A stretch of DNA of 64,000 nt, taken from assembly GCA_035913415.1 (NCBI GenBank), contig JAMIIV010000247.1, positions 16,551 to 80,550 of the forward strand. The letters are read 5' to 3'. Origin of the DNA: Fibrobacteria bacterium (GTDB taxonomy: Bacteria > Fibrobacterota > Fibrobacteria > UBA5070). Made by a program: the position numbers and the translations under genes. The notes under the pieces were generated by a model. It saw only the letters and a program-made list of their open reading frames with translations, did no database searches and was not told where the DNA came from. Shown piece after piece: positions 993 through 60,358 of the stretch. Positions within the stretch are counted from its first letter, which is position 1, and the number at the start of each line of letters is the position of its first letter.

Positions 993-1203
993 GGGGATGC
1001 GCTCTCCTGGAGGCGGTGGTGGCCATAGCGGGTGATGGGGATGAACACCCATGTTCCCATTGGATGCGTCTTGCAGGCAAAGGTTTCATGTAACCTCGCG
1101 CCCCCTCCCGACGTCCCTTCTCCATCGCCAACGCTGCCGATGAGGTGCAAGCATCCCATCACCACCCTGCGGTCCATCCTGTCCGCACACAACGGAGCCT
1201 CTC

Positions 1204-1404
1204 GTGAACAACATTGGAACCACCGATCGTCTGGTGCGCCTGGTCGCGGGCCTGGTCATGTTGCTTCTGGGCTGGAGCGGTGCCGTCGACGGCCTGTTCG
1301 GCACCATCCTGAAATTCCTGGGGTTCGTCCCCTTGGCCACGGCGCTGATCGGATTCTGTCCGGCCTATCTGCCGATGGGCATGTCCACGAGGAAGAAGGC
1401 ATGA
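1204..1404 (+). CDS. DUF2892 (YgaP-like) small membrane protein
   Basis: NIGTTDRLVR...GFCPAY.P.G.ST pattern with two hydrophobic helices. Confidence 0.85.
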   Translation: MNNIGTTDRLVRLVAGLVMLLLGWSGAVDGLFGTILKFLGFVPLATALIGFCPAYLPMGMSTRKKA

Positions 1405-1889
1405 GTCTGGCCGAACGCCTGGCGGGAACGCACCGCCCGGTCGTGGTGCAGTTCCACGCCCCCTGGTGCGGCCCTTGCAAGGCACTTTCGCCCCGCGTGG
1501 ACGCCATGGAGAAGGAATTCGAAGGCAAGGTCGATGTGGTCCGCATCGACATCGACCAGGAACCCGATCTGGCCCGGGAAGCCGGTGTGCGCGGCGTCCC
1601 GACCCTGGCGGTCTATCGCGACGGCCAGGAGATCCGCAGACACGTCGGAGCCCTGGACCCAGCCGGGCTGCGCGTGTTGTTCACCTCGGGAGCCGACCCG
1701 TCGCAGGCCAGGGCCCCCGTTGGGCGTCCCGCCTGGCACCTAGCCGCCAAATTCGGCGGGGCGGTGGCGCTGATCCTAGCGGCCGGGGCCTTTCCCTCGG
1801 CCGACTGGCTGCGTTGGCCCGGGTACGGTCTTCTTTTCTGGGCCATGACGGAAATGTGCCCCGCCTGCCGCGCTCCCGGCTCGCGCTGA
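1401..1889 (+). CDS. Thioredoxin with C-terminal hydrophobic extension
   Basis: FHAPWCGPCK active site and GVPT cis-Pro motif; ATG at 1401 overlaps the upstream stop; C-terminal ~50 aa are hydrophobic and end in MCPAC. Confidence 0.85.
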   Translation: MSLAERLAGTHRPVVVQFHAPWCGPCKALSPRVDAMEKEFEGKVDVVRIDIDQEPDLAREAGVRGVPTLAVYRDGQEIRRHVGALDPAGLRVLFTSGADPSQARAPVGRPAWHLAAKFGGAVALILAAGAFPSADWLRWPGYGLLFWAMTEMCPACRAPGSR

Positions 1890-1945
1890 ACCTGTCCCCA
1901 CAGATCCACCATCCATTCCGGCATCACACCGGACCCAAGGAAGCC

Positions 1946-2314
1946 ATGTCCATCTTTTCGCAGTTGCTTTCCCTGTTCCTCCCCGATCCCACCGCGAAGG
2001 TGGAGGCCACCGAGGCCAAGCGCCTCCTGGGGTTGGCTGCGTCCGAACGCCCCAAGTTGGTGGACGTGCGCACCACAGGAGAGTGGAAACAAGGACGCAT
2101 CCAGGGCGCCACGCACATCGACATTTCGTCTTCGGAGTTCGATCGCAAGATCGGTGGCCTGCCCCGCGAGGGAAGTTACCTCTTGTACTGCCAGTCGGGC
2201 GCCCGCTCGGGAATGGCCCGATCGCGCATGAAGGCGATGGGTTTCTCCGACGTGCGGCACGTCGCGGGCGGCATGTCCGCTTGGCGCGCGGCGCGCTTGC
2301 CGGTCGCGAAGTAG
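1946..2314 (+). CDS. Rhodanese-like domain protein
   Basis: LVDVRTTGEWKQGRIQGA...LYCQSGARS...GGMSAW; AAGGA RBS before the ATG at 1946. Confidence 0.88.
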   Translation: MSIFSQLLSLFLPDPTAKVEATEAKRLLGLAASERPKLVDVRTTGEWKQGRIQGATHIDISSSEFDRKIGGLPREGSYLLYCQSGARSGMARSRMKAMGFSDVRHVAGGMSAWRAARLPVAK

Positions 2315-5796: not shown

Positions 5797-6120
5797 ATGC
5801 CCTGCAAAACGTGTGCCCCCCTTGCCGCACCCGATCTCGCCGACAAAACCTGGTTCACCCATCGTGCGCGCATCCTGGCGGCCCTTGCCAATCCAGCGCG
5901 CCTCAAGATGATCGTGAGCCTGTCCCAAAGCGAAAAGTGCGTCTGCGAAATGGCCCAGGAAGTGGGGCTGGACATGTCGACCACCTCGCGCCACTTGGCG
6001 CAACTACGGCAAGTCGGGCTGCTGGAAGACGATCGCCGCGGCAACATGGTGTTCTATCGCCTGAAAGCCACCTGCCTGCCGGACTTCCTGCAGTGTCTGG
6101 ACGGCCTCTCCGAAACATGA
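5797..6120 (+). CDS. arsR: ArsR/SmtB family transcriptional regulator
   Basis: ALANPARLKM...EKCVCEM...STTSRHLAQLRQVGLL...VFYRL. Confidence 0.92.
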   Translation: MPCKTCAPLAAPDLADKTWFTHRARILAALANPARLKMIVSLSQSEKCVCEMAQEVGLDMSTTSRHLAQLRQVGLLEDDRRGNMVFYRLKATCLPDFLQCLDGLSET

Positions 6121-6145
6121 CGCCTATCCACACCGGGAGTTCCAT

Positions 6146-6520
6146 ATGACCTGCTCATGCACCAGCAACACCCCTGTCACCGCGATCTATGCCTGCTCGG
6201 GGGCCGCCGATGTCGGCGAGCTGGCCGACCGTGTGGCACGCACTCTCTCGACAAATGGCGTAGGGAAGATGTCCTGCGCCGTGGGCGTGGGTGCCGGAGT
6301 GCAGTCCCTGCGCAACACCGCATTGTCCGCTGGTCGAGTCCTGGCCATCGACGGCTGCGGAGTCGGATGCGTGGCAATCGCCATGAAACAAGCGGGGGTA
6401 GCAGAATTCGTCCATGTGGAGCTTGGTCAGGCAGGATTTCCCAAAGGCAATTCGCCAGCCAACGAAACGAACATTGCCGCAGCCTTGGCGATCGTGCACG
6501 AACGATTGGCCGCGGCCTAA
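6146..6520 (+). CDS. Putative zinc-binding DGC-domain protein
   Basis: IYACSGAADVGELADRVAR...MSCA...LAIDGC..GC. Confidence 0.85.
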   Translation: MTCSCTSNTPVTAIYACSGAADVGELADRVARTLSTNGVGKMSCAVGVGAGVQSLRNTALSAGRVLAIDGCGVGCVAIAMKQAGVAEFVHVELGQAGFPKGNSPANETNIAAALAIVHERLAAA

Positions 6521-6584
6521 GACACTGCAGGCAACGCGGTTCGCCCCTCCCCCCACCCACTTTCTTTGCACAGGAGAACCCATC

Positions 6585-6815
6585 ATGATCCTCGAAGTCC
6601 TCGGCACCGGCTGCACCAAATGCAAATTGCTCCACGAAGCGGTCCTCAAAGCGGTCGCGGAAGCGGGCGTGCAAGCCGAAGTCCACAAGATCGAAGACAT
6701 CGCCGCCATCTTGGAGCGCGGTGTCATGAGCACCCCCGCCCTCGTGAAAGACGGCAAGGTGCTGGTGGCCGGCAAGGTTCCCTCTCCCAAGGAGATCATG
6801 CCATGGCTCGTCTGA
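6585..6815 (+). CDS. Small redox-active disulfide protein (MTH895/ArsE family thioredoxin)
   Basis: EVLGTGCTKC...GVMSTPALV.DGKV...GKVP; AGGAG RBS. Confidence 0.88.
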   Translation: MILEVLGTGCTKCKLLHEAVLKAVAEAGVQAEVHKIEDIAAILERGVMSTPALVKDGKVLVAGKVPSPKEIMPWLV

Positions 6816-7222
6816 TCCTCGCCCTGGCTGTCGCGTTCGCGACAGCCGTGTCAAGCGCAGCCCCACAGGGGCCCAAGGCCCCGCCCACCGTGCAAGCCAC
6901 CTATTTCCACTACCAGTACCGGTGCGCCTCTTGTGTCAAGCTCGAACGCTGGGCCGCACAGGCCATCCAACTCGGACTCAAGGATTCCATCCGGACCGGG
7001 CGCCTCAAGTGGGGAACCATGGACATGGAGTCCCCCCAAGGTTCGGCTCTGGCAGACAAGATTGGCCTCATGAACAAAAACGTGGCCCTCATGGAGGTGC
7101 GCGACGGCAAGATGGTCCGCTCCAAGGAACTTGTGCAGACATGGCAGCTCCTGCGCGATTCGGTGGCCTTTTCCCAATACGTGAAGTCCGAGACGATCGC
7201 GTTCCTGAAAGCTGCTCGATGA
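6803..7222 (+). CDS. arsF: ArsF-family thioredoxin-like exported protein (nitroaromatic arsenical reductase subunit-like)
   Basis: Signal peptide; TYFH..RC.SC.KLE motif; located between ArsE-like and ArsG-like genes. Confidence 0.65.
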   Translation: MARLILALAVAFATAVSSAAPQGPKAPPTVQATYFHYQYRCASCVKLERWAAQAIQLGLKDSIRTGRLKWGTMDMESPQGSALADKIGLMNKNVALMEVRDGKMVRSKELVQTWQLLRDSVAFSQYVKSETIAFLKAAR

Positions 7223-7986
7223 TCGAATCCGACCTGCCCGTGATCGCTGCACTGGGACTGGGCATCTTGACCTCGGTCTCGCCCTGTCCCATGGCCAGCC
7301 ACGCGGCGGCAGTGTCGGTTCTTGTCCGCGGCGCAGGCTCCTGGAAAAGTGGCCTGGTTGTGGGCACGAGCTACGCGCTCGGCCGCGCCGCCGCCTACGC
7401 CGCCCTTGCCTGGATCCTTTCCGCCGGCATTTTCAAGTTGGGGCCACTGGTGCGCAAGGTCCAGTTCCACGCCGAATCCGTGTTGGGTTGGGTCTTCCTG
7501 GTGGGAGGGATCCTGCTGGCCGTCTCGCCTTGGCTGCGCCTTCCCGGTAACGGCATGAACACGTTGCGATGGAAAGAACGCTTCGATCGGATTGGCCCCA
7601 TCCCTGGCGCCTTCTTGCTGGGCGCCCTCTTGGCCCTGGCCTTCTGCCCGGTATCCGCGGGAATCTTTTTCGGATCGGTGGTCCCGTTGGCGGTCGCGAC
7701 CTCTCCCTCGTGGTCGGTCACCATTCCCTACGGCGTGGCCACGGCGTTGCCGGTATTCGTGCTGGTTGTCGCCGCCGGGTACGGAACCCACATGGTGGCG
7801 CGAACCTTCCAGGCCACGCAGAAGATCACACCTTGGCTGCACCGCATCTCGGCGACTGGCATGATCCTGGCCGGAATCTGGTTGCTGGCGCGCTCCTACG
7901 GCATCGCACTCGTGCCAGGCCCGTCCGCAGACGCTGCCGCCGAAATGTCGTCGCTTGTTCTTTTCGCGTTGGGAGGCTCGGCATGA
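7219..7986 (+). CDS. arsG: ArsG-family (DsbD_2/CcdA-like) aromatic arsenical efflux permease
   Basis: LGILTSVSPCPMA and LAFCP.SAGIFFG motifs; multiple TM segments. Confidence 0.75.
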   Translation: MIESDLPVIAALGLGILTSVSPCPMASHAAAVSVLVRGAGSWKSGLVVGTSYALGRAAAYAALAWILSAGIFKLGPLVRKVQFHAESVLGWVFLVGGILLAVSPWLRLPGNGMNTLRWKERFDRIGPIPGAFLLGALLALAFCPVSAGIFFGSVVPLAVATSPSWSVTIPYGVATALPVFVLVVAAGYGTHMVARTFQATQKITPWLHRISATGMILAGIWLLARSYGIALVPGPSADAAAEMSSLVLFALGGSA

Positions 7987-8999
7987 ACAGGCGCACAGCC
8001 AACATGCTCCTGGTGATCGGCCTGGGAGTCTGGTGGTTTGTCTACACGTCGCTCGCGCAGATATCGGCGTTCACCGTGAGAAGCATCGGCCTGGACGCCG
8101 GCACGCATCTTGCCGCATCGGTGGAATTCCTGGTGTTCGAGGTCCCCAAGGTCCTGCTCCTGCTGGTCGTGATCGTCTTCGCGGTGGGTGTGCTCCGGTC
8201 CTTCTTCAGCCCCGAGAAGACTCGACGGATTCTGTCCAAATTTCCCGAAGGCGTCGGGAACGTGATGGCCGCGCTGCTGGGAATCGCCACGCCGTTCTGT
8301 TCCTGTTCGGCCGTCCCCCTGTTCATCGGATTCCTCACCGCGGGCGTCCCCCTGGGCGTCACCTTCTCGTTTCTGATCTCGGCACCCATGGTGAACGAAG
8401 TGGCCCTGGCCTTGCTGTTCGGACTCTTCGGATGGAAGGTCGCCGGGCTGTATCTCGCCACCGGATTGGCCGTTGCGATCGTGGGCGGATGGGTCATCGG
8501 GAAACTTCGCATGGAATCCCATGTGGAAGACTGGGTCATGAAGATCCGCGCCACCGAAGCCCCCGATCTCGAGACCCTCTCCTGGACGGATCGACTCTCG
8601 GCAGGACTGGCAGCCGTCAAGGACATTGTGGGCAAGGTCTGGCCTTGGGTGGTCGCGGGCGTCGGAGTCGGTGCATTCATCCATGGATACGTCCCCACCG
8701 GATTCCTCTCGTCCTTCATGGGCAAGGACGCATGGTGGAGCGTGCCGCTTGCGGTGCTGCTGGGGATTCCCATGTACGCCAACGCGGCCGGAATCATCCC
8801 GATCGTGTCGGCCTTGCTGGAAAAGGGCGCAGCCCTGGGCACTTCGCTGGCCTTCATGATGGCCGTGATCGCCCTCTCCGCACCCGAGGCTGTGTTGCTG
8901 CGCAAGGTGCTGAAAGTCCGCCTTCTGGCGACCTTCTTCGGAATCGTGGCGGTGGGAATCCTTGTCGTGGGATGGCTTTTCAACCTGCTGCTCGGCTGA
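7983..8999 (+). CDS. arsP: ArsP (DUF318) organoarsenical permease
   Basis: LGIATPFCSCSAVPLFIG, FSFLISAPMVNE, GIPMYANAAG, ALSAPE. Confidence 0.88.
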   Translation: MNRRTANMLLVIGLGVWWFVYTSLAQISAFTVRSIGLDAGTHLAASVEFLVFEVPKVLLLLVVIVFAVGVLRSFFSPEKTRRILSKFPEGVGNVMAALLGIATPFCSCSAVPLFIGFLTAGVPLGVTFSFLISAPMVNEVALALLFGLFGWKVAGLYLATGLAVAIVGGWVIGKLRMESHVEDWVMKIRATEAPDLETLSWTDRLSAGLAAVKDIVGKVWPWVVAGVGVGAFIHGYVPTGFLSSFMGKDAWWSVPLAVLLGIPMYANAAGIIPIVSALLEKGAALGTSLAFMMAVIALSAPEAVLLRKVLKVRLLATFFGIVAVGILVVGWLFNLLLG

Positions 9000-9066
9000 G
9001 ACTCGCCCACCGCGCAACCTTCGTGAAACAGGTCCGCACTAGACTTTCAGTAAGCGACACCCTATA

Positions 9067-9084
9067 TTTCGATATATGGCGAAA
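9067..9084 (+). promoter_or_regulatory. Putative ArsR operator
   Basis: TTTCG-N8-CGAAA in an AT-rich patch overlapping the start of the second arsR. Confidence 0.5.
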
Positions 9085-9426
9085 CATGAAAATGAAGTAT
9101 CCGTCGAGACCCTCGCCGAGGTGGCCTCCGCCCTGGGAGAACCCAAGCGACTGATGGCCCTGGCCATGCTCGCCCGGGGCGAACTGTGCCTGTGCGATCT
9201 CACCGATGGGCTGGGCGTGGCGCCCTCCACGGTATCCAACCACATGGCCATCCTCAAGCGGGCCGGACTGGTGGAGGCGCGCAAGGACGGGCGCTGGATG
9301 CACTTCCGACTCGCCGATACCGATCCCTCCCCGGCGGTGGCCGAGGCCCTGCGCTGGGCCCTGGCCCATCTGCCGAATTCCGTCATTCCCTCCACCCACT
9401 GCACCACCGGAGACTGCTGCCCATGA
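9076..9426 (+). CDS. arsR: ArsR family transcriptional regulator
   Basis: ALGEPKRL...ELCLCDL...STVSNHMAILKRAGLV..RKDGRWMHFRL; C-terminal CC. Confidence 0.92.
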   Translation: MAKHENEVSVETLAEVASALGEPKRLMALAMLARGELCLCDLTDGLGVAPSTVSNHMAILKRAGLVEARKDGRWMHFRLADTDPSPAVAEALRWALAHLPNSVIPSTHCTTGDCCP

Positions 9427-9866
9427 ACCCCAAGACCAAGCTCCTGTACCTCTGCACCGGAAACTCCTGCCGCAGCCAGATGGCCGAGGCCTGGACCCGC
9501 CACCTCAAAGGCGACCTCTACGAGGTCTTCAGCGCGGGCATCGAAGCGCACGGCCTGAATCCGAACATGGTGAAGGTCATGGCCGAGGTGGGAATCGACG
9601 TCACGGGGCATACGTCGGATCTTGTCACCAAGTACTTCGACGCCGGCTTGGAAATCGTGGTGAGCGTCTGCGGCCACGCCGACCAGAATTGCCCCGTCTT
9701 TCCCGGCCAGGTGCGGCGCATCCACCAGGGATTCGACGATCCCCCGAAGCTGGCGCGGGAACTGGCGGCCCTGGGGGCCTCCGAAGAGGAGCAACTGGAG
9801 CCCTACCGCCGCGTGCGCGACGAAATCAAGGCGTGGGTGGAGACCCTTCCCGGAGCCTTGGCGTGA
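9423..9866 (+). CDS. arsC: Thioredoxin-coupled arsenate reductase (LMW-PTP fold)
   Basis: LCTGNSCRSQMAE, VSVCGHADQNCPVFPG, FDDP. Confidence 0.93.
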   Translation: MNPKTKLLYLCTGNSCRSQMAEAWTRHLKGDLYEVFSAGIEAHGLNPNMVKVMAEVGIDVTGHTSDLVTKYFDAGLEIVVSVCGHADQNCPVFPGQVRRIHQGFDDPPKLARELAALGASEEEQLEPYRRVRDEIKAWVETLPGALA

Positions 9867-10876
9867 ACAGCAGCCTCGAAGAGCAGATCCGCGCCAAGGT
9901 GCGCGAAGGGTACGGCGCCATCGCCGAATCCGACCAGACCGGCTGCTGCACCGGAGGCTCGTGCTGCGGCTCGTCACCGGAGATCGCCCGCGAACTGGCC
10001 ACCAAACTCGGGTACGATCCGGCGGTGCTGGAAACCCTGCCCGAAGGCACCAACCTGGGACTTTCGTGCGGCAATCCCCAGGCCATCGCCGACCTGAAGG
10101 CCGGTGAGACCGTCCTGGACCTGGGATCGGGAGCCGGCTTCGACGTCTTCCTGGCCGCCCAGGCCGTGGGACCTTCCGGACGCGCCATCGGGGTCGACAT
10201 GACCTCCGCGATGCTGACCAAGGCGCGCCGCAACGCAAGCGCCTTCGGCGAACGCACCGGTCTCACCAATGTCGAATTCCGTCTGGGAGAGATCGAGCAT
10301 CTTCCTGTGGCCGATTCGTCCGTGGACGTGGTGATCTCCAACTGCGTCCTGAATCTATCGCCCGACAAACCCCAGGTGTGGCGCGAGATCGCCCGCGTGC
10401 TCAAGCCCTGCGGCCGTGTGGCCATCTCGGACCTGGCGCTGGCCAAACCCCTGCCGTCGGGCGTGTTCGAGCTCGCCGAAGCCCTGGTGGGCTGTGTCGC
10501 CGGTGCGGTCCTGGTCGAAGATGTCTGGGCCGCCGCCGACGCCGCGGGACTCGCCGAAATCGCCATCACGGTCAAACACGACTACGTCGCGGTCATGGAG
10601 AACCTGCAGGATCCGCTGTACCGCGAAATCCTCGAGCTGCTTCCCACCGGAGAGCGCCTCTCCGACTACATCGTGTCGGCGACCATCTCGGCGCACAAAC
10701 CTTGCGAGGGTTGTGACGGGAATGGCGATTGTAGCGACGACGAACGCCTCGGAAACGGACCTGGCGGTGGGGACGACGCCCGCCTGACCTCGTCGACACC
10801 CGAATGGCACCAGAACAGCTCGTGCTGCGGCGCGACCGAAATGGGCGACGTGGGTGCCGGAAAGCGGTGCTGTTGA
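9863..10876 (+). CDS. arsM: Arsenite S-adenosylmethionine methyltransferase with Cys-rich C-terminal tail
   Basis: LGLSCGNP, LDLGSGAGFD, VISNCVLNLSPDK, GCVAGA; GTG start at 9863 coupled to the arsC stop. Confidence 0.92.
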   Translation: MNSSLEEQIRAKVREGYGAIAESDQTGCCTGGSCCGSSPEIARELATKLGYDPAVLETLPEGTNLGLSCGNPQAIADLKAGETVLDLGSGAGFDVFLAAQAVGPSGRAIGVDMTSAMLTKARRNASAFGERTGLTNVEFRLGEIEHLPVADSSVDVVISNCVLNLSPDKPQVWREIARVLKPCGRVAISDLALAKPLPSGVFELAEALVGCVAGAVLVEDVWAAADAAGLAEIAITVKHDYVAVMENLQDPLYREILELLPTGERLSDYIVSATISAHKPCEGCDGNGDCSDDERLGNGPGGGDDARLTSSTPEWHQNSSCCGATEMGDVGAGKRCC

Positions 10877-11919
10877 TGGCCGCGGCACGACTGTCGTTCC
10901 TGGATCGGTGGCTCACCCTCTGGATCGCCTTGGCCATGGCCTCGGGGCTCGTTCTGGGAAAGTTCGCACCCGCCCTGGTGCAAGCCTTGGCCGACGCCTC
11001 GATCGGGTCCACCTCGATCCCCATCGCCATCGGTCTGATCCTGATGATGATCCCGCCCTTCGCCCGGGTGCGTCCTCGGGAACTGCCCAAGGTGTTCACC
11101 GACCCGAAGGCGTTGTCGCTTTCCGTCGTCCTGAACTGGCTGGTCGGACCGGTACTGATGTTCGCCTTGGCCTGGATCTTCCTGTCCGACCGTCCCGACC
11201 TCTTCGCGGGACTGGTCCTGGTCGGTCTGGCGCGGTGCATCGCCATGGTGGTCGTCTGGAACCAGCTCGCTGGCGGGTCCGCCGAAGCCGCCGCAGGCCT
11301 GGTGGCCTTCAACAGCGTCTTCCAGGTGCTCACCTACGGCGGCTACGCGTGGTTCTTCCTGTCGGTGGTCGCGCCCTGGGCGGGACTTCCGGCGCAAGAC
11401 ATCGCCGTTTCCATGGGCGAAGTCGCCGGTTCGGTGCTGTTGTACCTGGGCCTTCCCTTCGCGCTGGGTCTGGGAATCCGCTGGCTTCTGGTGACCTTCC
11501 GCGGCGAGGCCGCAACCGCCAGGTTCAATGCCCGGTTCGCTCCCGTGACCCTGGTCGCGCTCTTGTTCACCATCGTCGTGCTCTTCGCCCTGCAGGGCGA
11601 CCGCATCCTGTCGAAGCCTTTCGAGGTGGTGCGGGTGGCGGCACCGCTGGCCATCTACTTCGCCGCGATGTTCGCCCTCTCGTGGTGGACGGCTCGGCGC
11701 ATCGGGATGGACTACGGCCGCACGGTCACGCAGGCATTCACGGGTGCGTCCAACAATTTCGAACTGGCCATCGCCGTGGCCATCGGATCGTTCGGGCTCA
11801 CCTCGGGCGCGGCCTTCGCCGCCACCATCGGCCCTCTGGTGGAAGTTCCCGTGATGGTGGCGCTGGTGCAAGTCGCGCTGCGGCTGCGGCCGACAACGGG
11901 CAGTCTTCAGCGCGGGTAG
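10876..11919 (+). CDS. acr3: Acr3 family arsenite efflux transporter
   Basis: LSFLDRWL..W, GLARCIAMV.VWN, SNNFELAIAVAI, IGPLVEVPVM. Confidence 0.95.
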   Translation: MAAARLSFLDRWLTLWIALAMASGLVLGKFAPALVQALADASIGSTSIPIAIGLILMMIPPFARVRPRELPKVFTDPKALSLSVVLNWLVGPVLMFALAWIFLSDRPDLFAGLVLVGLARCIAMVVVWNQLAGGSAEAAAGLVAFNSVFQVLTYGGYAWFFLSVVAPWAGLPAQDIAVSMGEVAGSVLLYLGLPFALGLGIRWLLVTFRGEAATARFNARFAPVTLVALLFTIVVLFALQGDRILSKPFEVVRVAAPLAIYFAAMFALSWWTARRIGMDYGRTVTQAFTGASNNFELAIAVAIGSFGLTSGAAFAATIGPLVEVPVMVALVQVALRLRPTTGSLQRG

Positions 11920-14637: not shown

Positions 14638-15579
14638 TCAGGCCTGCGAGCCCGAGTCTCCCAGGGACGCCATCATGCGTCGAAATCCGTCGATGTGGTC
14701 TCCAAGATCCGCCAGATACCGGCCCCGCAGCTCGCAAACGGCCATGCCGCGGAAGGTGGGAACGATGGGGCCCAGTACCGCTCGATAATCGATGTCTCCA
14801 CGGCCCGGGGGCATGTGCAGGTCGCCTCGACCCAACGGGATCTGGTGGGTCTGCGTCTTTTCGGTCCAGTTGGCGACACGCCCGAAGTTGTCGTGTACAT
14901 GCAGATGCAGGAGCGGTTTCCCGCCCAGCATCGCCGCGGCCTCCGTCTCCGAGTACCCGTGCAGGCGCGCGCTCATGTGCAGATGCCCCGTATCGAGGCA
15001 GATTCCGACATTCGGCCGCCCCACCCGAGCGACTTGTCCGAGCAGGTCTTCGGGGAATTCGGCGTAACAGTAGGGAGAATAGGGAAGGTACGGACGTGCG
15101 TTTTCCAAGGCGATGCGCACCCTGGGGAAGGCATCGGCGGCCACCCGCAGCAACGTGGCCTCCTCCTCCAACAAGTCTTGGCTCTCGCTGGCCTGGGGGC
15201 GCCACGGCACCGCTACTCCGAACTCCACCTCCGAGACCCAACGCCCCGGGTGCACCACCAGGACCTCGCCGCCGGCGAGATCGCAGAATTCCAGGCAGGC
15301 ATCCAGCACGGCGCGGTGCATGTCGGCATCGCGCTCGGCCATCAGGTCCAGAGAATCGGGGGCGTGCACGCTCAAGCGCAATGGGAAATCGCGGAGGATC
15401 CCCAGGAAGGCCGAGACGCGCAGACGATCCAAGCGTCCTGCCCGGATGGCATCGAGTCCGTGGATGCCGATCTCGACGGCTTGGAGTCCCAGCCGGGTCG
15501 CTTGCAGCAGGTCGCCGGGAAGTTTGGCCAGGTTGCCGTCCAAACGGGCCTCGTGGATGTTCGTGGACAGGGTCAGCAC
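14638..15579 (-). CDS. Sugar-phosphate isomerase/AP-endonuclease-2 family TIM-barrel metalloenzyme, last gene of the phn operon
   Basis: SVHAP, LVVHPG, IALEN, ICLDTGH, HLHVHDN...DLHMPPG.G.ID; GTG start overlaps the phnM stop. Confidence 0.8.
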   Translation of the reverse strand: MLTLSTNIHEARLDGNLAKLPGDLLQATRLGLQAVEIGIHGLDAIRAGRLDRLRVSAFLGILRDFPLRLSVHAPDSLDLMAERDADMHRAVLDACLEFCDLAGGEVLVVHPGRWVSEVEFGVAVPWRPQASESQDLLEEEATLLRVAADAFPRVRIALENARPYLPYSPYCYAEFPEDLLGQVARVGRPNVGICLDTGHLHMSARLHGYSETEAAAMLGGKPLLHLHVHDNFGRVANWTEKTQTHQIPLGRGDLHMPPGRGDIDYRAVLGPIVPTFRGMAVCELRGRYLADLGDHIDGFRRMMASLGDSGSQA

Positions 15580-24346: not shown

Positions 24347-24454
24347 AGATCGGGCTTGGGTGTTTCACCTTCGTTGATGGAGTGTGGCATCGATCTTTCA
24401 TTCCTCTCCGATTCCCTGTAACCTCGATGCCCCGACAGGTATCCTTCAATCATC

Positions 24455-26506: not shown

Positions 26507-26523
26507 GGATGTATATTACACCC
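26507..26523. promoter_or_regulatory. GGATGY-N5-RCATCC-type operator, site A
   Basis: GGATGTATATTACACCC, 39 bp upstream of the NifB/X-like gene. Confidence 0.65.
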
Positions 26524-32189: not shown

Positions 32190-32206
32190 AGATGTATTCT
32201 ACATCC
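32190..32206. promoter_or_regulatory. GGATGY-N5-RCATCC-type operator, site B
   Basis: AGATGTATTCTACATCC in the divergent gap between the 4Fe-4S gene and bioB. Confidence 0.7.
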
Positions 32207-34221: not shown

Positions 34222-34248
34222 TGTAACCTTGCGGTGTTCTCCACATCC
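34222..34248 (+). promoter_or_regulatory. TGTAACC element plus operator site H
   Basis: TGTAACC-ttg-CGGTGTTCTCCACATCC upstream of the CoADR gene. Confidence 0.6.
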
Positions 34249-37145: not shown

Positions 37146-37162
37146 GGATGCTCATTGCATCC
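37146..37162. promoter_or_regulatory. GGATGY-N5-RCATCC-type operator, site C
   Basis: GGATGCTCATTGCATCC in the divergent gap between the peroxiredoxin and DUF1847 genes. Confidence 0.72.
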
Positions 37163-37789: not shown

Positions 37790-37811
37790 CCATTAGGTGT
37801 TTATGACATCC
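37785..37811 (+). promoter_or_regulatory. TGTAACC element plus operator site D
   Basis: TGTAACC-att-AGGTGTTTATGACATCC upstream of the Acr3-like gene. Confidence 0.62.
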
Positions 37812-40173: not shown

Positions 40174-40190
40174 GGATGCTATCTACATCC
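40174..40190. promoter_or_regulatory. GGATGY-N5-RCATCC-type operator, site E
   Basis: GGATGCTATCTACATCC, 50 bp upstream of the NifX-like gene. Confidence 0.7.
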
Positions 40191-45356: not shown

Positions 45357-45449
45357 TCAGTCGTGGCAGCCGGCCACCAGGGTCGAGACCTTGGCGCAGC
45401 ACTGGGCCACGGGAGCGCAGCAGTTCTTCTTGTGGATCAGAGTCTTCAT
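45357..45449 (-). CDS. 30-aa Cys-rich peptide MKTLIHKKNCCAPVAQCCAKVSTLVAGCHD (candidate RiPP precursor or metalloid-binding peptide)
   Basis: AAGGA RBS 7 nt upstream of the ATG; 28/30 codons end in G/C as in host genes; lies between the ArsM-like gene and the rSAM/SPASM gene on the same strand. Confidence 0.82.
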   Translation of the reverse strand: MKTLIHKKNCCAPVAQCCAKVSTLVAGCHD

Positions 45450-45490
45450 GTCGTTTCCTTTCTGGGTTGAATGGATTGCGGGATCTAGGC

Positions 45491-46141
45491 TCATCCGCCG
45501 CAACAGCAGCGGGCCTTGGGCTTCCACCCTTGGAGGGTGAAGCTCGAGACTTCGATACGGCCCTTCGGATAGGGCTGCGAGCGTTCGAGGATGTCGAGGT
45601 CGCGCAGGCCTGCGTCGGAAACCGTCTGCAGGTAGACCTCCAGCGTGTCGGCTCCGGCCCAGCATTCGGCCACGGCCTCGGGGTCGTTGCGGAACTCCGG
45701 AGGTACGGGGGCGCTGGCGAAGATGTCCGAGACCACGAAGCGCCCACCGGGCTTGAGCACGCGGAAGACCTCGGCCCAAACCTTCGACTTGTCCGCGGCG
45801 TGGTTCAGGACGCAGTTGGAGATCACCAGATCGACCGACGCAGGCGGAATGGGAAGGTTTTCCAGAGCGGCTTTGTCGAAACGCACGTTGGTGATACCCA
45901 GCGCCTCGGCGGTGGAGCGCGCCTTGTCCAACATGCCGTCGGAGATGTCGATGCCCCAAACGAATCCGTCAGAACCCACCTCTTCGGCCATGCGCAGGCA
46001 ATCGGTACCTCGGCCCGATCCCAGGTCCAGGCAGACCTCACCGGGTTTGGGCTTGGCGTGGTCGACCGCCCCTCCGCACGAGAGGCAGCAAGCGCTTTCG
46101 GCCAATTCGGAATAGCGGTTTTCGATCGCGGTCGTATCCAT
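45491..46141 (-). CDS. ArsM-like SAM-dependent methyltransferase (compact)
   Basis: CCLSCGG, LDLGSGRG.D, VISNCVLNH..DK, AECWAGA, C-terminal CCCGG; GAGGAG RBS. Confidence 0.85.
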   Translation of the reverse strand: MDTTAIENRYSELAESACCLSCGGAVDHAKPKPGEVCLDLGSGRGTDCLRMAEEVGSDGFVWGIDISDGMLDKARSTAEALGITNVRFDKAALENLPIPPASVDLVISNCVLNHAADKSKVWAEVFRVLKPGGRFVVSDIFASAPVPPEFRNDPEAVAECWAGADTLEVYLQTVSDAGLRDLDILERSQPYPKGRIEVSSFTLQGWKPKARCCCGG

Positions 46142-46198
46142 CCGGTCTCCTCGTGCGGGGTGAGGCACTCCGGCCCTTGACCCCGTCTATGGAGAAAA

Positions 46199-46225
46199 GG
46201 ATGCCATTTTCATCCAAAGGTTACA
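46199..46225 (-). promoter_or_regulatory. Operator site F plus GGTTACA element upstream of the methyltransferase-peptide-rSAM cluster
   Basis: GGATGCCATTTTCATCC-aaa-GGTTACA. Confidence 0.65.
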
Positions 46226-46469
46226 CGCTCTGGTGGCGCATCCGGGATTTCTGCCGCGCCAAGGACACGGCACTTGCCGCCTTTGGTGTCCATGGCGCCA
46301 TCAGGGACCAGGGGGACGCTGGGACGAGCGTTTTCCGATCGGGTGACCTCCGCGTCAAAGGGCGGGGAAGGCGACAACCGAACGTCCGGGCAGGAGATCG
46401 CCAGACTCCAAACCCAACACGCTACGGCCCCGCACCCCTTCGCCTCAGCGTTCCGCCCCCGTCAGGCTC

Positions 46470-55406: not shown

Positions 55407-56111
55407 TCACCAACCGCGATTTTTTCTTCCCTCGTGTGCACCCTGCCGCAACGAACCACCCGCGCCATCACCCGGAGCGGGCTTCCAGTTGCGCACCACG
55501 AAGACGGAGTCGGGCCCCACCGTTCCGTTCAGACGCACCGGCCCCATGGGAGCGAGATCCGACGAATCGTTCCAGACCAGGAGCCATCGGCGTCCGTCGA
55601 CGGCCAGGAATCCTTGGGTGTCCAGCCTGCCTGCCAATCGCCCCGCCGCCGGGTCATGCCAAGCATCCAAGGCCCGCGCCTGCCAGACCGTGCGGTACGC
55701 CGGCACCAGATGGGCCAGAGTCCGATGCACCCGCACCAGGCCATCGACCCGCTCCAGGATGAACCCGGACGCCAGCCCCGTAGACACGATGCCCAGGATC
55801 ACGATCCACGGACGCAATCGCCACGCACGCGGCAGCTCCCGAAACAGAAGCCATGCCCCCCAGATACACGCCACCGAGGTGAACGACCACACCCAGGGCG
55901 CAAGGCGCGCAAACAGCGCCCGAGCGATCCACCCGGGACCACGATGTTCGTGGAGTTCCTGGAACAGCAGGGCCGACGACACACAAAGCAACACCAGCAC
56001 GAGCACGAACAGCCCCAAGCGGAACAGCCGCCGGGCCAATACGATCCAGCGCGGAACGGGCCGGATCTTCTCGGCGTGGATGCGGCCCAGTAGACGATCG
56101 GCGTGATCCAT
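55407..56111 (-). CDS. Hypothetical membrane protein, possible anti-sigma factor
   Basis: Directly downstream of the ECF sigma gene; 3 TM segments plus a soluble C-terminal domain. Confidence 0.65.
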   Translation of the reverse strand: MDHADRLLGRIHAEKIRPVPRWIVLARRLFRLGLFVLVLVLLCVSSALLFQELHEHRGPGWIARALFARLAPWVWSFTSVACIWGAWLLFRELPRAWRLRPWIVILGIVSTGLASGFILERVDGLVRVHRTLAHLVPAYRTVWQARALDAWHDPAAGRLAGRLDTQGFLAVDGRRWLLVWNDSSDLAPMGPVRLNGTVGPDSVFVVRNWKPAPGDGAGGSLRQGAHEGRKNRGW

Positions 56112-56678
56112 TCAGTCCCCCCTGTCCAGATGCAATCCGCGGGCGCGGGCGGCCAACGCGAAGGCCTCGCGCGCACGGCGCACCTGCGTCGCGATGGTGT
56201 TGGCGTTGCGGTGCAGGATGTCACCGATCTCCTCGTAGCTCTTGTCTTCCAGAAAGCGCAGGACGAACACGTCGCGCAACACCGGAGACAACCCCTGGAG
56301 GATCTCGCGGATGGCAGTGGATTGCTCGGCGGCTTCGAGAGGGGCATCGGTGCGCAATCCGTTCGGAACGAAGAGGGCTTCGTCGAGCTCCACGGTGGGC
56401 TCCTGCCGGGCGTGGCTGCGGATTCCCGAGACCATGACATTGTGCACGATGCGGAAGATCCAGCTCGAGAACCGCAGGCCTGCGTCGAAGGAGTGAATGT
56501 TCCGGTAGACGCGTACGAAGGTCTCCTGGAGCAGGTCATCCACATCGGGAGCGCACGACCAGCAGCGCCGCAGCACGTAGCGCCGCAGCGGTTCCTGCCA
56601 ACGCCGCACCAGGACGACGAGCGCCTGCTCGTCTCCGTGTGCCACGCGCGCGGCCAGTTGTTCGTCGGTGGGATCCAT
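56112..56678 (-). CDS. ECF-family RNA polymerase sigma factor
   Basis: DEQL.....GD..A...LV, DDLLQETFVRVY, FSSWIFRIVHN, VFVLRFLEDKSYEEI..IL....TI.TQV.RA. Confidence 0.92.
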   Translation of the reverse strand: MDPTDEQLAARVAHGDEQALVVLVRRWQEPLRRYVLRRCWSCAPDVDDLLQETFVRVYRNIHSFDAGLRFSSWIFRIVHNVMVSGIRSHARQEPTVELDEALFVPNGLRTDAPLEAAEQSTAIREILQGLSPVLRDVFVLRFLEDKSYEEIGDILHRNANTIATQVRRAREAFALAARARGLHLDRGD

Positions 56679-56797
56679 CTTGTTCGTTACAGGGTACGCT
56701 TGTGGAACCACTTTTCTTTCACCAGACCCGAAATAATTCGCTCGTCCCCAGCGTATGAGTCGTTACAAGCCCCATCCGCCCTCCAAGGGAGTCCTCC

Positions 56798-57718
56798 ATG
56801 TCGCAGCTTCACCCCCGTTTTGCCTCCCTTGCCTGGCTCTCCGCTGTCGCGCTTCCCGCCTTTGGCCAGACCGACCCCCTGGTCGACCACGTACCCGCCT
56901 GGTCCAGCTCCGTCCGCCAATCCTTCTCGTGGTCGGAAACCGCCGTTCCCGACTGGGCCCACACCACTTCCCTGCACGTGAGCCGCGAAGTGGACAGCGA
57001 TCCCGACTTCCTCACCGACATCCACGCGGGGGTGGACCTGCTGGGTGCAGGATTCCAATTCGACTCGTTGTGGGGAGTCCAACCCACGGGCGGCCTCTCG
57101 GCCAGCATCGCAAGCGTCGACGCCGATCTCAACGGCTGGGTCCTCTACGGCGAGGAGGAATGGTCCGACGGCGGCGCCTCCCTGGATCTCTCCCGCGAAC
57201 TCCTCGAAGCGGGAGAGATGCGACTGGCGGGAACCGCGTTCGCTTCCGCGTCGGCGAATTCGGGTTCACAAGCCGGCGTGGGCCTGGAGTTCCGATCGTG
57301 GTCGACGTCAGTCAGCATGGACGCCAACCTCTCCGTCAGCCGACTCCAGGACGCCGACCTCTCGTCGGTCACCCGCCTGACCGGCAAACGCGCCATCACC
57401 ACCGACCTGGTGGGCGATCAATGGGCCTTCCGCTTCGAACCAGGCGCGGGGCTGCGCTTGGGCAACGGCGGCATCGGGTTCGACATACCCATGGCGGCCC
57501 TGCGCAGCGAGCTCACCACGGTGTCGATGAAAAAGGGCTCCGTTACCAAAGCCCAGTGGGCCCTGGATGCGGCTCCCTCGGCGCACGTCTACGGAGCGAT
57601 GGGCCCAATGTACCTGCGCGCCACCTACGGCCTGCAGGTCACCACCGTGCTGGGGTCGAAGTCCGAAGACTCCGACCCCGTCGGCTGGGCGACCCTGTCG
57701 GCCAGCTACCGCTTCTGA
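56798..57718 (+). CDS. Hypothetical exported protein, possibly an outer-membrane beta-barrel
   Basis: Signal peptide; alternating beta-strand-like pattern; C-terminal LSASYRF. Confidence 0.6.
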   Translation: MSQLHPRFASLAWLSAVALPAFGQTDPLVDHVPAWSSSVRQSFSWSETAVPDWAHTTSLHVSREVDSDPDFLTDIHAGVDLLGAGFQFDSLWGVQPTGGLSASIASVDADLNGWVLYGEEEWSDGGASLDLSRELLEAGEMRLAGTAFASASANSGSQAGVGLEFRSWSTSVSMDANLSVSRLQDADLSSVTRLTGKRAITTDLVGDQWAFRFEPGAGLRLGNGGIGFDIPMAALRSELTTVSMKKGSVTKAQWALDAAPSAHVYGAMGPMYLRATYGLQVTTVLGSKSEDSDPVGWATLSASYRF

Positions 57719-57734
57719 CGGGGCGCGCCGCCGA

Positions 57735-60254
57735 TCAGACGAACAGGTTGATTCCCGAGGTGCCGGCCGCTTCCAGGTAGGCCGCGACACCGCCAATCTC
57801 CACGGCCTCGATGAGCTCTTCGCGCCCCACGCCCATGAGTTCCATCGACATCTGGCAGGCGGTCATCTTCACCCCGCCGCGCACGGCATTGTCCATCATG
57901 GTCTCCAGGCGGTCCACCTGGAAGGCCTCCATGCGCTTTTTCATCAAAAGCGACCCGATGCCCCCGAAGTTCATGCGGGACAAGCCCAGGCGGTCGGCGT
58001 GGCGCGGCAGCATCAGATCGAACATGCGCCCCATCAGATCCTTGCGCACCGCAACCTTTTCGCGCCGGCGCACCACCGACAGTCCCCAGAAGGTGAAGAA
58101 CATCGTGACCTTCTTGCCCGTGGCCAAGGCGCCGTTGGCGATCACGAAACTCGCCAAGGCCCGATCCAGATCGTTGGAGAACACGATCAGCGTGACCTCG
58201 TCACCGGAGACCTGCAGTGCGTGCCCCGCGCCCGCGACCGCGGGCAGGGCCGCACGCCCCTGCCGTTTTTCGACCGTGGCCGACCAATCTCCACCCGCTT
58301 CCTTGACGCCCAGAAGATGGTGCCCCGTGATGTTGCACCAGGCCTGCACATCGCGCGCGAATCCAGGGTCGGAGGCCCGCACCACCACCCTGCCGTGCAG
58401 GGGAGCGGTATCGACGGCCTCCTTGAGTTTGAGGATGGGTCCCGGGCACTGCAGTCCGCAGGCGTCCACCCGAATCTCCACGACTTCGCCGTGCGGCAAT
58501 CCCTCCGGGGCTCCTGTCCCTTCGGAGGTGCCCGCCTCGACATCCGAGGGCTCATGGGCCCGGCGCAAGGCGGGGCGGAATTCCCCCGGGTTGTCCTGGG
58601 GGTCGGTCGCGGCCTTCCAGGTCTTCCAGCCGCCGGTGACGTTGCCCACCTTCGTCCAGCCGTTCTGGCGCAGGATGCGCTCGGCCAACCACCCGCGGAT
58701 GCCCACCCCGCAGTAGAGCACCACATCGCGGTCCTTGGGAATTTCGGCCAACCGCCCGCGCAACTCCGTATTGGAGATGTTCGTCGCGCCGGGGATGTGT
58801 CCGAGTTCGAATTCCTCGGACGTTCGCACGTCCAGGAGGAACGCGCCGGCCTCCACGCGCGGCGCGACCTCGTGCCATCGAACAATTTCCGTCAACCCTT
58901 CGCGTTCGTTGGCCGCCACGAAGGCCGCGTAGTTGGTGCCATCCTTGGCGCTGGCGAAGGGCGGCGCGTAGGCGTGCTCGAACTCGGCCAGGTCCTCGAC
59001 CGTGGCGCCCAACCCGATGTGCGCCGCCACCACGTCGATCCGTTTGTCCACGCCGTCGCGCCCCACCGCCTGGGCTCCCAGGATGCGTCCCGAAGCGGGA
59101 TCCCACACCAGTTTCAGCGCGTAGGGATGGGCTCCGGGATAGTACCCGGCATGGCTGCCCGGATGCACCACAGCCACATGGTGAGAAATGCCTTCGCGGC
59201 GGCACAACTTTTCGGACAATCCCGTGCAGGCCACCGTGAGGTCGAAGATCTTCGCCACGGCCGTGCCGATGGAACCCTTCCACGCACGCGGATGCTCCCC
59301 CACGATGTTCTCGGCGACGATGCGCGCCTGTTTGTTCGCCGGCCCGGCCAGGGGAACCGGCATGGGTTTTCCTGTCAGCGGACTGGTGGCCACGATAGCG
59401 TCGCCCACGGCCCAGATCCAAGGCACCGAGGTGCGCAGGTGGTCGTCGACCACGATGTAGCCGCGTTCATCGAGCGCGATCCCGGCCTCGCGGGCCAGGC
59501 GGGTGTCGGGTTTCACCCCGATGGACAGGATGACCAGGTCGGCGGCCAGTTTCGCCCCCGACTTCAGGTTCACCTGCAGCCGATCGGGTCCCAACGCGAC
59601 GAACTCCTGGACGCCGTCGGCCAGATGCAGCCCCACGCCTTTTTCGCGCAGATGGTGGTGCACGGGTGCGGCCATCTCGAAGTCGACCACCCCCATCACC
59701 TGATCCAGGGCCTCGACCACGGTCACGGCCAATCCGCGCTCCCATAGGTTCTCGGCCATCTCCAGGCCGATGAACCCCGCCCCCACCACCACGGCACGTT
59801 CGGGCCTGTGGGTGTCCAGGATCGCTTTCACCCGGTCGATGTCGGGCACCGACCGCACGGTCAGGATGCGGGGGTGGTCGATGCCCGCAATGGGCGGACG
59901 CAACGGTTCGGCTCCGGGCGAAAGCACCAGGGCGTCGCAGGACTCCTCCCGGATCTCCCCCGTGCGCCGGTCGAGCAGTTTCACAGTGCGCGCCGCGGCA
60001 TCGATCGCCACGGCCTCGGTTCCCACCCGCACATCGACATTGAGGGTTTCCCGGAACTTCGATGGGGTCATCAGGAACAGCTTGTCGCGCTCCTGGATGG
60101 TGCCACCGGCATAATAGGGCAGGCCGCAATTGGCGTAGCTGACGTGGTCTCCCCGCTCGACGAGCACGATCTCGGCCGTCTCATCCAACCGCCGAAGCCG
60201 GGCCGCCGTCGAGGCGCCTCCCGCCACTCCACCCACGATGACCACCTTGCGCAT
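57735..60254 (-). CDS. CoA-disulfide reductase-rhodanese-TusA(SirA)-DsrE2 multidomain flavoprotein
   Basis: GGVAGGAS, SYANCGLPY, HAGYYPG, YAPPF; LDVR...LYCGVG.RG (rhodanese); DACGLQCPGP (TusA); FFTFWG...ACQMSM (DsrE2). Confidence 0.93.
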   Translation of the reverse strand: MRKVVIVGGVAGGASTAARLRRLDETAEIVLVERGDHVSYANCGLPYYAGGTIQERDKLFLMTPSKFRETLNVDVRVGTEAVAIDAAARTVKLLDRRTGEIREESCDALVLSPGAEPLRPPIAGIDHPRILTVRSVPDIDRVKAILDTHRPERAVVVGAGFIGLEMAENLWERGLAVTVVEALDQVMGVVDFEMAAPVHHHLREKGVGLHLADGVQEFVALGPDRLQVNLKSGAKLAADLVILSIGVKPDTRLAREAGIALDERGYIVVDDHLRTSVPWIWAVGDAIVATSPLTGKPMPVPLAGPANKQARIVAENIVGEHPRAWKGSIGTAVAKIFDLTVACTGLSEKLCRREGISHHVAVVHPGSHAGYYPGAHPYALKLVWDPASGRILGAQAVGRDGVDKRIDVVAAHIGLGATVEDLAEFEHAYAPPFASAKDGTNYAAFVAANEREGLTEIVRWHEVAPRVEAGAFLLDVRTSEEFELGHIPGATNISNTELRGRLAEIPKDRDVVLYCGVGIRGWLAERILRQNGWTKVGNVTGGWKTWKAATDPQDNPGEFRPALRRAHEPSDVEAGTSEGTGAPEGLPHGEVVEIRVDACGLQCPGPILKLKEAVDTAPLHGRVVVRASDPGFARDVQAWCNITGHHLLGVKEAGGDWSATVEKRQGRAALPAVAGAGHALQVSGDEVTLIVFSNDLDRALASFVIANGALATGKKVTMFFTFWGLSVVRRREKVAVRKDLMGRMFDLMLPRHADRLGLSRMNFGGIGSLLMKKRMEAFQVDRLETMMDNAVRGGVKMTACQMSMELMGVGREELIEAVEIGGVAAYLEAAGTSGINLFV

Positions 60255-60331
60255 GCCCGCTCCTTGACGCCGAAATGAAAGGTCCATCCGCGCCAGGACC
60301 GGAAGGTCCGGGCGCTCCATTGCCCGAGATT

Positions 60332-60358
60332 GGATGTACGAGACATCGATAGGTTACA
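60332..60358 (-). promoter_or_regulatory. Operator site G plus GGTTACA element
   Basis: GGATGTACGAGACATCG-ata-GGTTACA upstream of the CoADR fusion. Confidence 0.62.

Follow-up and report, generated by a model that had tools for sequence, protein, structure and literature searches.

The Cys/His-ligated sensors IscR, NsrR and RsrR of the Rrf2 family and PerR control iron-sulfur (Fe-S) biogenesis, peroxiredoxin and thiol-redox genes through palindromes that overlap promoters, and IscR also has a Cys3His ligand set. The Rrf2 and PerR folds are unrelated to that of PadR. Canonical PadR and LmrR regulators bind an inverted repeat of ATGT/ACAT half-sites with an 8-10-nt spacer (PMC3506622), and canonical PadR controls one local detoxification or efflux operon. 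Another PadR-family protein, RosR (VNG0258H) of Halobacterium salinarum, is a multi-operon oxidative-stress repressor that leaves DNA upon exposure to oxidant, binds a palindromic site near start codons and is autoregulated (PMC4287449). The orange-protein (orp) genes of Desulfovibrio vulgaris are under OrpR, an enhancer-binding activator of the sigma-54 type that has a [4Fe-4S] PAS domain and controls only the two orp operons (PMC8359166). Transcriptional control in the Fibrobacterota is almost unknown, and so is the way in which anaerobes other than the model Desulfovibrio and Clostridium coordinate orange-protein (ORP)-like Fe-S carriers with peroxide and persulfide defence. Here we analyze a 64,000-nt stretch of DNA from an uncultured Fibrobacteria bacterium (GenBank assembly GCA_035913415.1, contig JAMIIV010000247.1, positions 16,551 to 80,550; hereafter the window; G+C 65%), in which a palindrome recurs upstream of Fe-S, thiol and persulfide genes, and a PadR-family protein encoded at 41281-41706 that is its putative regulator.

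A first-pass annotation of the window had reported nine copies of one 17-bp palindrome, GGATGYN5RCATCC. All nine 17-mers (9/9) lie at the positions it gave, and seven of them make up a single motif. They are listed with their scores against the weight matrix described below; in composite operators, a TGTAACC element precedes the palindrome.

26507..26523, operator GGATGTATATTACACCC, 26.7 bits, 38 nt 5' of a NifX-like operon (26562, plus strand)
32190..32206, operator AGATGTATTCTACATCC, 27.5 bits, between a divergent 4Fe-4S protein gene (31311-32138, minus strand) and BioB (32228, plus strand)
37146..37162, perfect palindrome GGATGCTCATTGCATCC, exact match, 15.5 bits, between the divergent genes for peroxiredoxin (Prx; 36340-37059, minus strand) and DUF1847 (37220, plus strand)
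37795..37811, plus strand, composite operator AGGTGTTTATGACATCC, 21.2 bits, 33 nt 5' of an SBF-family transporter gene (37845, plus strand), with TGTAACC at 37785-37791 immediately 5' of it
40174..40190, perfect palindrome GGATGCTATCTACATCC, exact match, 21.2 bits, 49 nt 5' of a NifX-like/metallo-beta-lactamase operon (40124 to 38840, minus strand)
46199..46215, minus strand, composite operator GGATGAAAATGGCATCC (minus reading), 15.1 bits, preceded by TGTAACC at 46219-46225
60332..60348, minus strand, composite operator CGATGTCTCGTACATCC (minus reading), 12.1 bits, the weakest of the seven, preceded by TGTAACC at 60352-60358

The operon starting at 26562, divergent from a YkuD gene, encodes a NifX-like protein, two MinD-Fer4 ATPases, a DUF89 protein and a NifU-Mrp protein (Pfam, NCBIfam), and the BioB/HMGL-like product encoded from 32228 scores 370 bits against a cut-off of 225. 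The site at 46199 lies 57 nt 5' of an operon encoding an S-adenosylmethionine (SAM) methyltransferase, a 30-aa Cys-rich peptide, a radical-SAM (rSAM)-SPASM protein, an MFS transporter and the PadR protein, and the site at 60332 lies 78 nt 5' of a gene (60254 to 57735; Pfam) fusing CoA-disulfide reductase (CoADR), rhodanese, TusA and DsrE. By the similarity of the NifX-like proteins to the MrpORP C-terminal domain and the presence of MinD-Fer4 ATPases, these clusters are homologues of the Desulfovibrio orp genes (PMC6345978, PMC8359166). The gene labels of the first-pass annotation were essentially right by Pfam and NCBIfam, apart from an "Acr3-like" gene at 37845 that is an SBF-family paralogue, the true Acr3 being encoded in an ars operon at 10867. 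Its description of the targets as functionally coherent also holds for the Fe-S, thiol and persulfide genes behind the palindrome, and the peptide cluster that it placed in the regulon, an operon resembling those for ribosomally synthesized and post-translationally modified peptides (RiPPs), bears the strong site at 46199.

The gene map was deliberately liberal and counted 91.6% of the window as coding. Exact matches to GGATGYN5RCATCC number 2 in the window against 0.03 expected, and matches with at most one mismatch number 6 against 1.16, a count that none of 100 shuffles (0/100) reached. With up to two mismatches there are 21 matches against 14.1 expected, and hence the loose pattern by itself is not enriched. 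To avoid circularity, we built a weight matrix from 25 sites that all came from related contigs and none from the window. When the window was scanned with it, the seven best matches, in descending order 32190, 26507, 40174, 37795, 37146, 46199 and 60332, scored from 27.5 down to 12.1 bits and were all intergenic (7/7), the next match, at 10.2 bits, falling in coding sequence. Against 60 dinucleotide shuffles, the window held 6 matches of at least 14 bits (0.13 in shuffles) and 8 of at least 10 bits (0.75 in shuffles). The comparison with shuffled sequence, which had been proposed at the outset, is favourable for the exact, one-mismatch and matrix forms and unfavourable for the two-mismatch form. 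The remaining two reported sites, at 1062 (-2.7 bits) and 34232 (2.5 bits), score at background level as palindromes and drop out of the motif.

The refined motif reads www-RGATGTA-N3-TACATCY-www and spans about 23 bp. Among 40 half-oriented sites, bases G2, T4 and G5 and their counterparts C13, A14 and C16 are invariant; positions 3 to 6 are A in 32/40, T in 40/40, G in 40/40 and T in 33/40, and the other half is symmetrical. The spacer between ATGT and ACAT is 5 nt in all of about 36 sites, and operators lie 21-86 nt 5' of start codons. The TTT/AAA flanks reported earlier are real, in the form of conserved AT-rich 3-nt flanks. To our knowledge the palindrome resembles no motif of Rex, PerR/Fur, IscR or ArsR, as had been stated before, and the half-sites of NsrR (GATGyAT) lie about 4 bp further apart, while PerR has a 7-1-7 TTATAAT box. 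In the literature searched (DUF1847, redox-sensing PadR and Fibrobacterota regulators), we found no description of this operator motif or of Fibrobacterota redox regulation.

Conservation upstream of orthologues, against which the motif was also to be judged, was found in the closest genomes, metagenome-assembled genomes of Fibrobacteria and Fibrobacterota with 50-90% amino-acid identity and rearranged synteny. About 36 non-redundant sites precede the same gene families in the related loci L001, L081-84, L103 and L161-L177. Scans for the degenerate core pattern gave 10.6 occurrences per 100 kb of Fibrobacterota-like loci but only 0.73 per 100 kb of other phyla's loci with an orthologue of DUF1847 or of the CoADR-rhodanese fusion (CoADR-Rhd), which total 2.2 Mb. 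The operators found in relatives are as follows (positions in brackets).

NifX_a operon, orthologous to 26507: L001 (13133), L084 (9397)
BioB, orthologous to 32190: L001 (16193), L084 (6276), L161 (19150)
4Fe-4S protein (Fer4) gene: L001 (19068), L161 (16275)
Prx: L081 (17004), L161 (14191)
DUF1847: L081 (14393), L103 (4341), L162 (15070)
SBF, composite operators: L081 (12829), L103 (2778)
NifX_b: L081 (6459), L161 (10476), L162 (10509), L164 (13771), L167 (10498), L175 (4476), L177 (2624), L181 (4595)
Thioredoxin-thioredoxin reductase (Trx-TrxR): L175
Small Cys-rich 70-aa protein genes: L001, L081-83

The NifX_b site, at 40174 in the window, is the most widely conserved operator position. Taken together, these data make it very probable that the palindrome is a conserved DNA operator placed before Fe-S, thiol and persulfide genes.

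Several features of the related loci accompany these sites. The small proteins, about 70 aa long (MSECPxLPKCxFFND...YCQ...C), have their genes 5' of CoADR-Rhd, in many cases as tandem copies (L001 12832-13047, L081 9122-9654, L082-L084), and lack a homologue in the window. L171 (2778-8412) and L172 encode nitrogenase-like NifD/K-type proteins, a NifB-like rSAM-NifX fusion and a homocitrate-synthase-like protein directly upstream of PadR; this gene content is a hint that a nitrogenase-like cofactor pathway may be served by the NifX-like and HMGL-like members of the regulon.

The transcription factors encoded in the window are two ArsR proteins, an extracytoplasmic function (ECF) sigma factor, a hybrid kinase and the PadR protein:

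41281-41706, minus strand, PadR-family gene and candidate regulator, 141 aa, PF03551 at 50.2 bits against a cut-off of 27

Its N-terminus carries C20-x2-H23-x4-C28-x-C30 (Cys3His), followed by a winged helix-turn-helix and a long C-terminal helix. The AlphaFold model (pLDDT 81) places helices at 38-48, 54-61 and 73-85, a wing at 89-107 and a final helix at 109-139, and its best Foldseek matches, with target TM-scores of up to 0.87, are PadR structures, those of the LmrR type among them. As modelled, the protein has the PadR-s2 architecture, a winged helix-turn-helix protein of about 110 aa with a single long C-terminal dimerisation helix, to which the 35-aa N-terminal Cys3His segment is an addition beyond the family definition. 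Sequence matches in the PDB are all PadR-like and begin at query residue 36 or later, leaving the Cys3His extension without a counterpart among them. A search found 58 close homologues of the protein (63-99% identity), and the named sources among them are all Fibrobacterota or Fibrobacteria. C20, H23, C28 and C30 are invariant in 21 aligned homologues, the motif C-x-(R/K)-H-x4-C-x-C-(G/A)-MGN is present in 24/24 full-length close homologues, and in an all-against-all search the same Cys/His motif was found in 24/148 further relatives with 35-52% identity. Because the motif is encoded in frame upstream of the annotated gene in L164, L175 and L081, shorter database entries are start-codon miscalls, gene callers often taking the MGN as the start. 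The Cys3His motif is predicted to be a redox, metal or Fe-S sensor, probably, and no description of a Cys3His PadR was found in the literature searched.

What links this protein to the operator is the half-site and the genomic neighbourhood. The operator has the inverted ATGT/ACAT half-sites of the PadR family, and L161, L162/163, L167-170, L175/176 and L177 all have PadR, palindrome and NifX-like gene in this order. The window has the same order on the minus strand with a rubrerythrin gene inserted; in L164 and L171-174 a TonB-receptor/lipoprotein/Fur cassette lies between PadR and NifX, and in L081 a TDT-like transporter gene lies there in addition to that cassette. L167/170 and L175/176 have a further palindrome, GGATGTATCATGCATCC, that runs over the start of PadR. 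Two more distant loci, each with a PadR homologue of 52% identity, show a similar arrangement: L178 has a NifX-like gene, two palindromes and PadR, with AGATGTAGCTCACATCT 67 nt 5' of PadR, and L181 has PadR, AGATGCTAGTTACACCT and a NifX-like gene. In the window, operator 46199 heads the operon that contains PadR, an autoregulatory position. No other transcription factor is consistently adjacent to the sites across loci, the LysR gene and the sigma-54 activator found near some of them each being lineage-specific. The PadR protein, which had been named early as one to test, is on half-sites and linkage the best-supported regulator, and we put the probability that it binds the operator at roughly 0.65.

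Several observations weigh against this assignment. The spacer is 5 nt instead of the 8-10 nt of characterised PadR operators, which means that the dimer geometry must differ from theirs, and the N-terminal Cys3His segment is modelled with low confidence. In L002, a PadR orthologue of the 80% class sits in the same RiPP-like operon and the palindrome is absent in 20 kb, operon promoter included; in place of operator 46199 there is only a TGTAACC...CGTCC promoter. L081 and L171-174 are without a strong site flanking PadR, L161 and L162 have sites only downstream of PadR and none upstream, and the PadR homologue of L179/180 (41% identity) is without such a motif. PadR could be a member of the regulon instead of its regulator.

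In the best-surviving alternative, the operator would be genuine and bound by a factor encoded outside the window (Fur/PerR-like, Rrf2, MerR-type or a sigma-54 activator), with PadR merely a target or neighbour. The 7-3-7 geometry, which resembles NtrC-type and Irr-type sites, speaks for it, as do the spacer unlike known PadR operators and the PadR of L002 without sites. A Fur-family gene moreover diverges from the NifX site of L081, L164 and L171-174, and in L081 and L103 a gene for an OrpR-like PAS/sigma-54 activator diverges from that of DUF1847. The Fur gene, however, belongs to the inserted TonB-receptor/lipoprotein cassette and is absent from the site-bearing L161, L162, L167, L175, L177, L178 and L181 and from the window, and a Fur orthologue in L085, assigned by N-terminal sequence only, lies near Zn-ABC-transporter-like genes; the Fur-like protein at the L081 NifX site was for these reasons rejected as a general regulator. 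The sigma-54 activator, rejected as well, is absent from the window and has a -24/-12 target of its own (TGGCAT-N5-TTGC); no -24/-12 promoter follows the palindromes. PadR alone is adjacent in every lineage, and its family half-site matches. We consider a regulator from outside the window unlikely.

ArsR1 and ArsR2 were likewise rejected. Neither ars operon (5797-11919) has a site and the ArsRs are unlinked to the motif, which leaves the metalloid part of the regulon first proposed weak. The first of the two adjacent ars clusters encodes ArsR, a DGC-domain protein, a thioredoxin-like protein, a DsbD-like protein and ArsP, and the second ArsR, ArsC, ArsM and Acr3; both are conserved in L001, L003 and L081.

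The proposal that a single repressor accounts for all nine sites misses a second, independent signal. The element TGTAACC alone occurs 6 times in the window (0.99 expected), always oriented toward a gene and followed by C(G/A)TCC after 15-16 nt. The pattern TG[TA]AAC[CT]-N14-16-C[GA]TC also occurs 6 times (0.375 expected), each time upstream of and oriented toward a gene, and it overlaps three true operators. The signal is found at these places:

34222..34248, plus strand, TGTAACC-N15-CATCC, before CoADR-rhodanese (34277, plus strand), at the earlier site 34232
1088 to 1062, minus strand, TGAAACC-N15-CATCC, before a Trx-TrxR fusion, at the earlier site 1062
1089-1116, plus strand, TGTAACC-N16-CGTCC, before YgaP-TM/Trx/rhodanese, back-to-back with the 1062 promoter
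24417..24444, plus strand, TGTAACC-type promoter candidate before TauE (24455, plus strand), additional to the earlier nine sites
37785, plus strand, TGTAACC promoter before SBF
46225, minus strand, TGTAACC promoter before the RiPP-like operon
60358, minus strand, TGTAACC promoter before CoADR-TusA-DsrE

ECF promoters of the SigW/SigX type read TGAAAC/TGTAAC-N16-17-CGTA/CGAC, and the AAC of their -35 and the CGT of their -10 are hallmarks to which the TGTAACC signal is similar. It has a -35 with AAC and a -10 of the CGT kind at ECF spacing, and is intergenic and gene-oriented; the -10 is CGTC in relatives and mostly CATC in the window, where most -10 elements read CATCC and so depart from the CGT of typical ECF promoters. 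What sites 1062 and 34232 share is the right half CATCC and, 5' of it, TG(T/A)AACC, and no more. On its sequence features, TGTAACC-N15/16-C(G/A)TCC is a predicted ECF-sigma-type promoter that accounts for both of them, and it also explains the GGTTAC beside 46199 and 60332. TGTAACC-N16-CGTC precedes the CoADR-Rhd orthologues of L002, L081-L084, L086, L171 and L173-L175, mostly without a left half-site, and that of L085 has the variant promoter TGTAACT-N15-CATCC. TauE in L175 (7386) has the orthologous TGTAACC-N16-CGTC, and methyltransferase genes in relatives also carry the TGTAACC promoter. With thioredoxin, thioredoxin-reductase, rhodanese and CoADR genes behind it, the TGTAACC signal has a thiol/sulfur theme similar to that of the SigR thiol-stress regulon. 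BirA (TGTAAACC) and MerR-type (long-spacer) readings of TGTAACC were rejected, there being no second inverted copy and a better fit to ECF spacing. A sigma-70 consensus scan of 26400-46300 gave 1 match against 2.0 expected and 0 at the sites, and is uninformative on promoters of this phylum.

The window also encodes a sigma factor of this class:

56112..56678, minus strand, ECF sigma gene (Pfam Sigma70_r2/r4_2), followed by a membrane protein gene at 55407-56111

The membrane protein may be its anti-sigma factor, and translation of the sigma factor probably starts at MDPTDEQ (56678). In L162, L167 and L175, orthologues 62-67% identical to it are neighbours of PadR and the regulon, and this ECF sigma factor is a possible reader of the TGTAACC promoters. 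The autoregulation typical of ECF factors through that promoter was not seen, the sigma gene and its orthologues carrying GGAAAG-N16/17-CGTAC and not TGTAACC. In the window (56679-56800), L162, L167 and L175, the element upstream of the sigma gene reads G(G/T)GAAAG-N16/17-CGTAC, and GAAATA-N16-CGTATG faces a divergent gene for a 306-aa secreted protein (56798, plus strand).

In composite sites, found at 37795, 46199 and 60332 in the window, at Prx and SBF in L081, at Prx in L161 and at CoADR in L175, the operator fills the stretch between -35 and -10, and the -10 is formed by its right half. This overlap raises the question of whether there is a separate operator at all: every site could be an ECF promoter and the palindrome a by-product of the CATCC -10, possibly on both strands at divergent promoters. 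The enrichment of TGTAACC and its promoter pattern, the conservation of that promoter without palindrome before CoADR-Rhd, TauE and methyltransferase genes, the full account of 1062 and 34232, and the double use of CATCC as -10 and right half-site are all in keeping with this idea. We nevertheless regard it as highly improbable, given that TG(T/A)AAC is absent at -35 from 4/7 strong window sites and from about 28/36 sites overall, that the left half (G2, T4, G5) is invariant where an ECF promoter would not need it, that the AT-rich centre and flanks are conserved, and that there are palindromes 3' of the PadR stop codon in some places and across the PadR start codon in others.

An RNA hairpin, either a regulatory stem-loop in the 5' untranslated region or a weak terminator (6-7-bp stem, 3-5-nt loop, often a T run), is least probable of all: a terminator scan flags 46215-46199 and TTTT follows several sites, but only 7/59 half-site deviations are compensatory, bases and not pairs are invariant, no Rfam family matches the palindrome, sites are found between divergent start codons, away from any gene end, the composite-site -35 is only 3-4 nt upstream so that the palindrome would not be transcribed, and the combination of covariation, GC-rich stem and gene-end location that marks intrinsic terminators or structured RNAs is lacking, the uncompensated deviations and the Rfam result together pointing to a protein-binding DNA site.

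Under the PadR assignment, a dimeric transcription factor, most probably the Cys3His PadR, would bind the operator of about 23 bp. Its targets would be ORP-like NifX, MinD-Fer4 and NifU-Mrp carriers, BioB, the 4Fe-4S protein, peroxiredoxin and DUF1847, and further the SBF transporter, the CoADR/sulfurtransferase fusion and the RiPP-like operon ending in PadR itself. In composite sites, the right half CATCC would double as the -10 of the ECF-type promoter; because the operator fills the space between the TGTAACC -35 and the -10, binding should block RNA polymerase, and we infer repression from this position. The C-x2-H-x4-C-x-C motif would sense oxidant, persulfide, metal or Fe-S status and then release DNA; the redox or Fe-S nature of the signal is likewise inferred.

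Such a system would share with canonical PadR and LmrR the ATGT/ACAT half-sites (PMC3506622), the Pfam PadR domain, the LmrR-type fold and a regulator gene adjacent to target and transporter; autoregulation is likely as well. It would differ from them in its 5-nt spacer, in the conserved outer G/C and AT-rich flanks that extend the site to 23 bp, and in a predicted reach of at least seven transcription units. The comparison with RosR, an archaeal protein, covered motif and targets: it has the unrelated motif TCGnCGACGAGnTCGnCGAC and acts on a different set of genes. The Desulfovibrio vulgaris orp system has the same target families, namely NifX-like ORP, MinD-Fer4 and MrpORP-type proteins (PMC8359166; PMC6345978), and OrpR uses a Cys-ligated redox sensor (PMC8359166), a likeness to the sensing proposed for the Cys3His PadR. 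In contrast to OrpR, the sites described here lie on the core promoter, have no -24/-12 element and serve a broader regulon.

The OrpR-like activators of L081 (14501-16414) and L103 (4447-5403), divergent from DUF1847, have a Cys-rich PAS segment, CGPDCS, and a TGGCAT-N5-TTGC promoter precedes a third NifX-like gene. Some relatives therefore have the palindrome system and orp control of the Desulfovibrio type side by side.

A broader reading, which we advance tentatively and hold to be rather less probable than its negation, is that a so far uncharacterised Cys-motif PadR subfamily bearing an Fe-S cluster or a redox-active metal would be the master repressor of ORP-like Fe-S-carrier and thiol/persulfide-redox genes, acting through ATGT-N5-ACAT interleaved with ECF promoters, in Fibrobacterota and other anaerobes. 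Its extension to other anaerobes is proposed because homologues with 35-52% identity keep both the motif and the NifX linkage.

A 30-aa Cys-rich open reading frame (ORF; 45357-45449, minus strand), MKTLIHKKNCCAPVAQCCAKVSTLVAGCHD, lies between arsenite-methyltransferase-like and rSAM/SPASM maturase-like genes and probably encodes the precursor of a RiPP. L175 and L162 also have called ORFs of 30-33 aa between their methyltransferase and rSAM genes, on the same strand in L175 and on the opposite strand in L162. An arsinothricin (ArsM/ArsL/ArsQ) reading of the SAM methyltransferase, rSAM and MFS genes was dropped, the rSAM protein being SPASM/RiPP-maturase-like and the precursor ORF adjoining it. 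The region 40191-40569, between the NifX_b operator and rubrerythrin, comprises about 380 bp without a convincing ORF and has a GC-rich hairpin near 40227-40258; Rfam gave no match to it, and it is not similar to the Fur-like gene found at this position in some relatives. A complete carbon-phosphorus lyase/phosphonate cluster (phnCDE, GNAT, phnGHIJKL, amidohydrolase; 14638-24346) lies between two site groups and is unrelated to the motif.

If the PadR assignment is right, it would provide a map of a regulon of seven units, conserved in many metagenomic relatives, together with a new PadR sensory design, the N-terminal Cys3His, and a new operator geometry. An operator half-site that is also the -10 of an alternative-sigma promoter would amount to two-layer control of the same genes. 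Genes of unknown function, namely those for DUF1847, the SBF paralogue and the small Cys-rich proteins and the Cys-rich RiPP-like peptide operon, would gain a redox/Fe-S context, and on the broader reading the regulator itself would be a counterpart, on a PadR scaffold, of IscR and OrpR.

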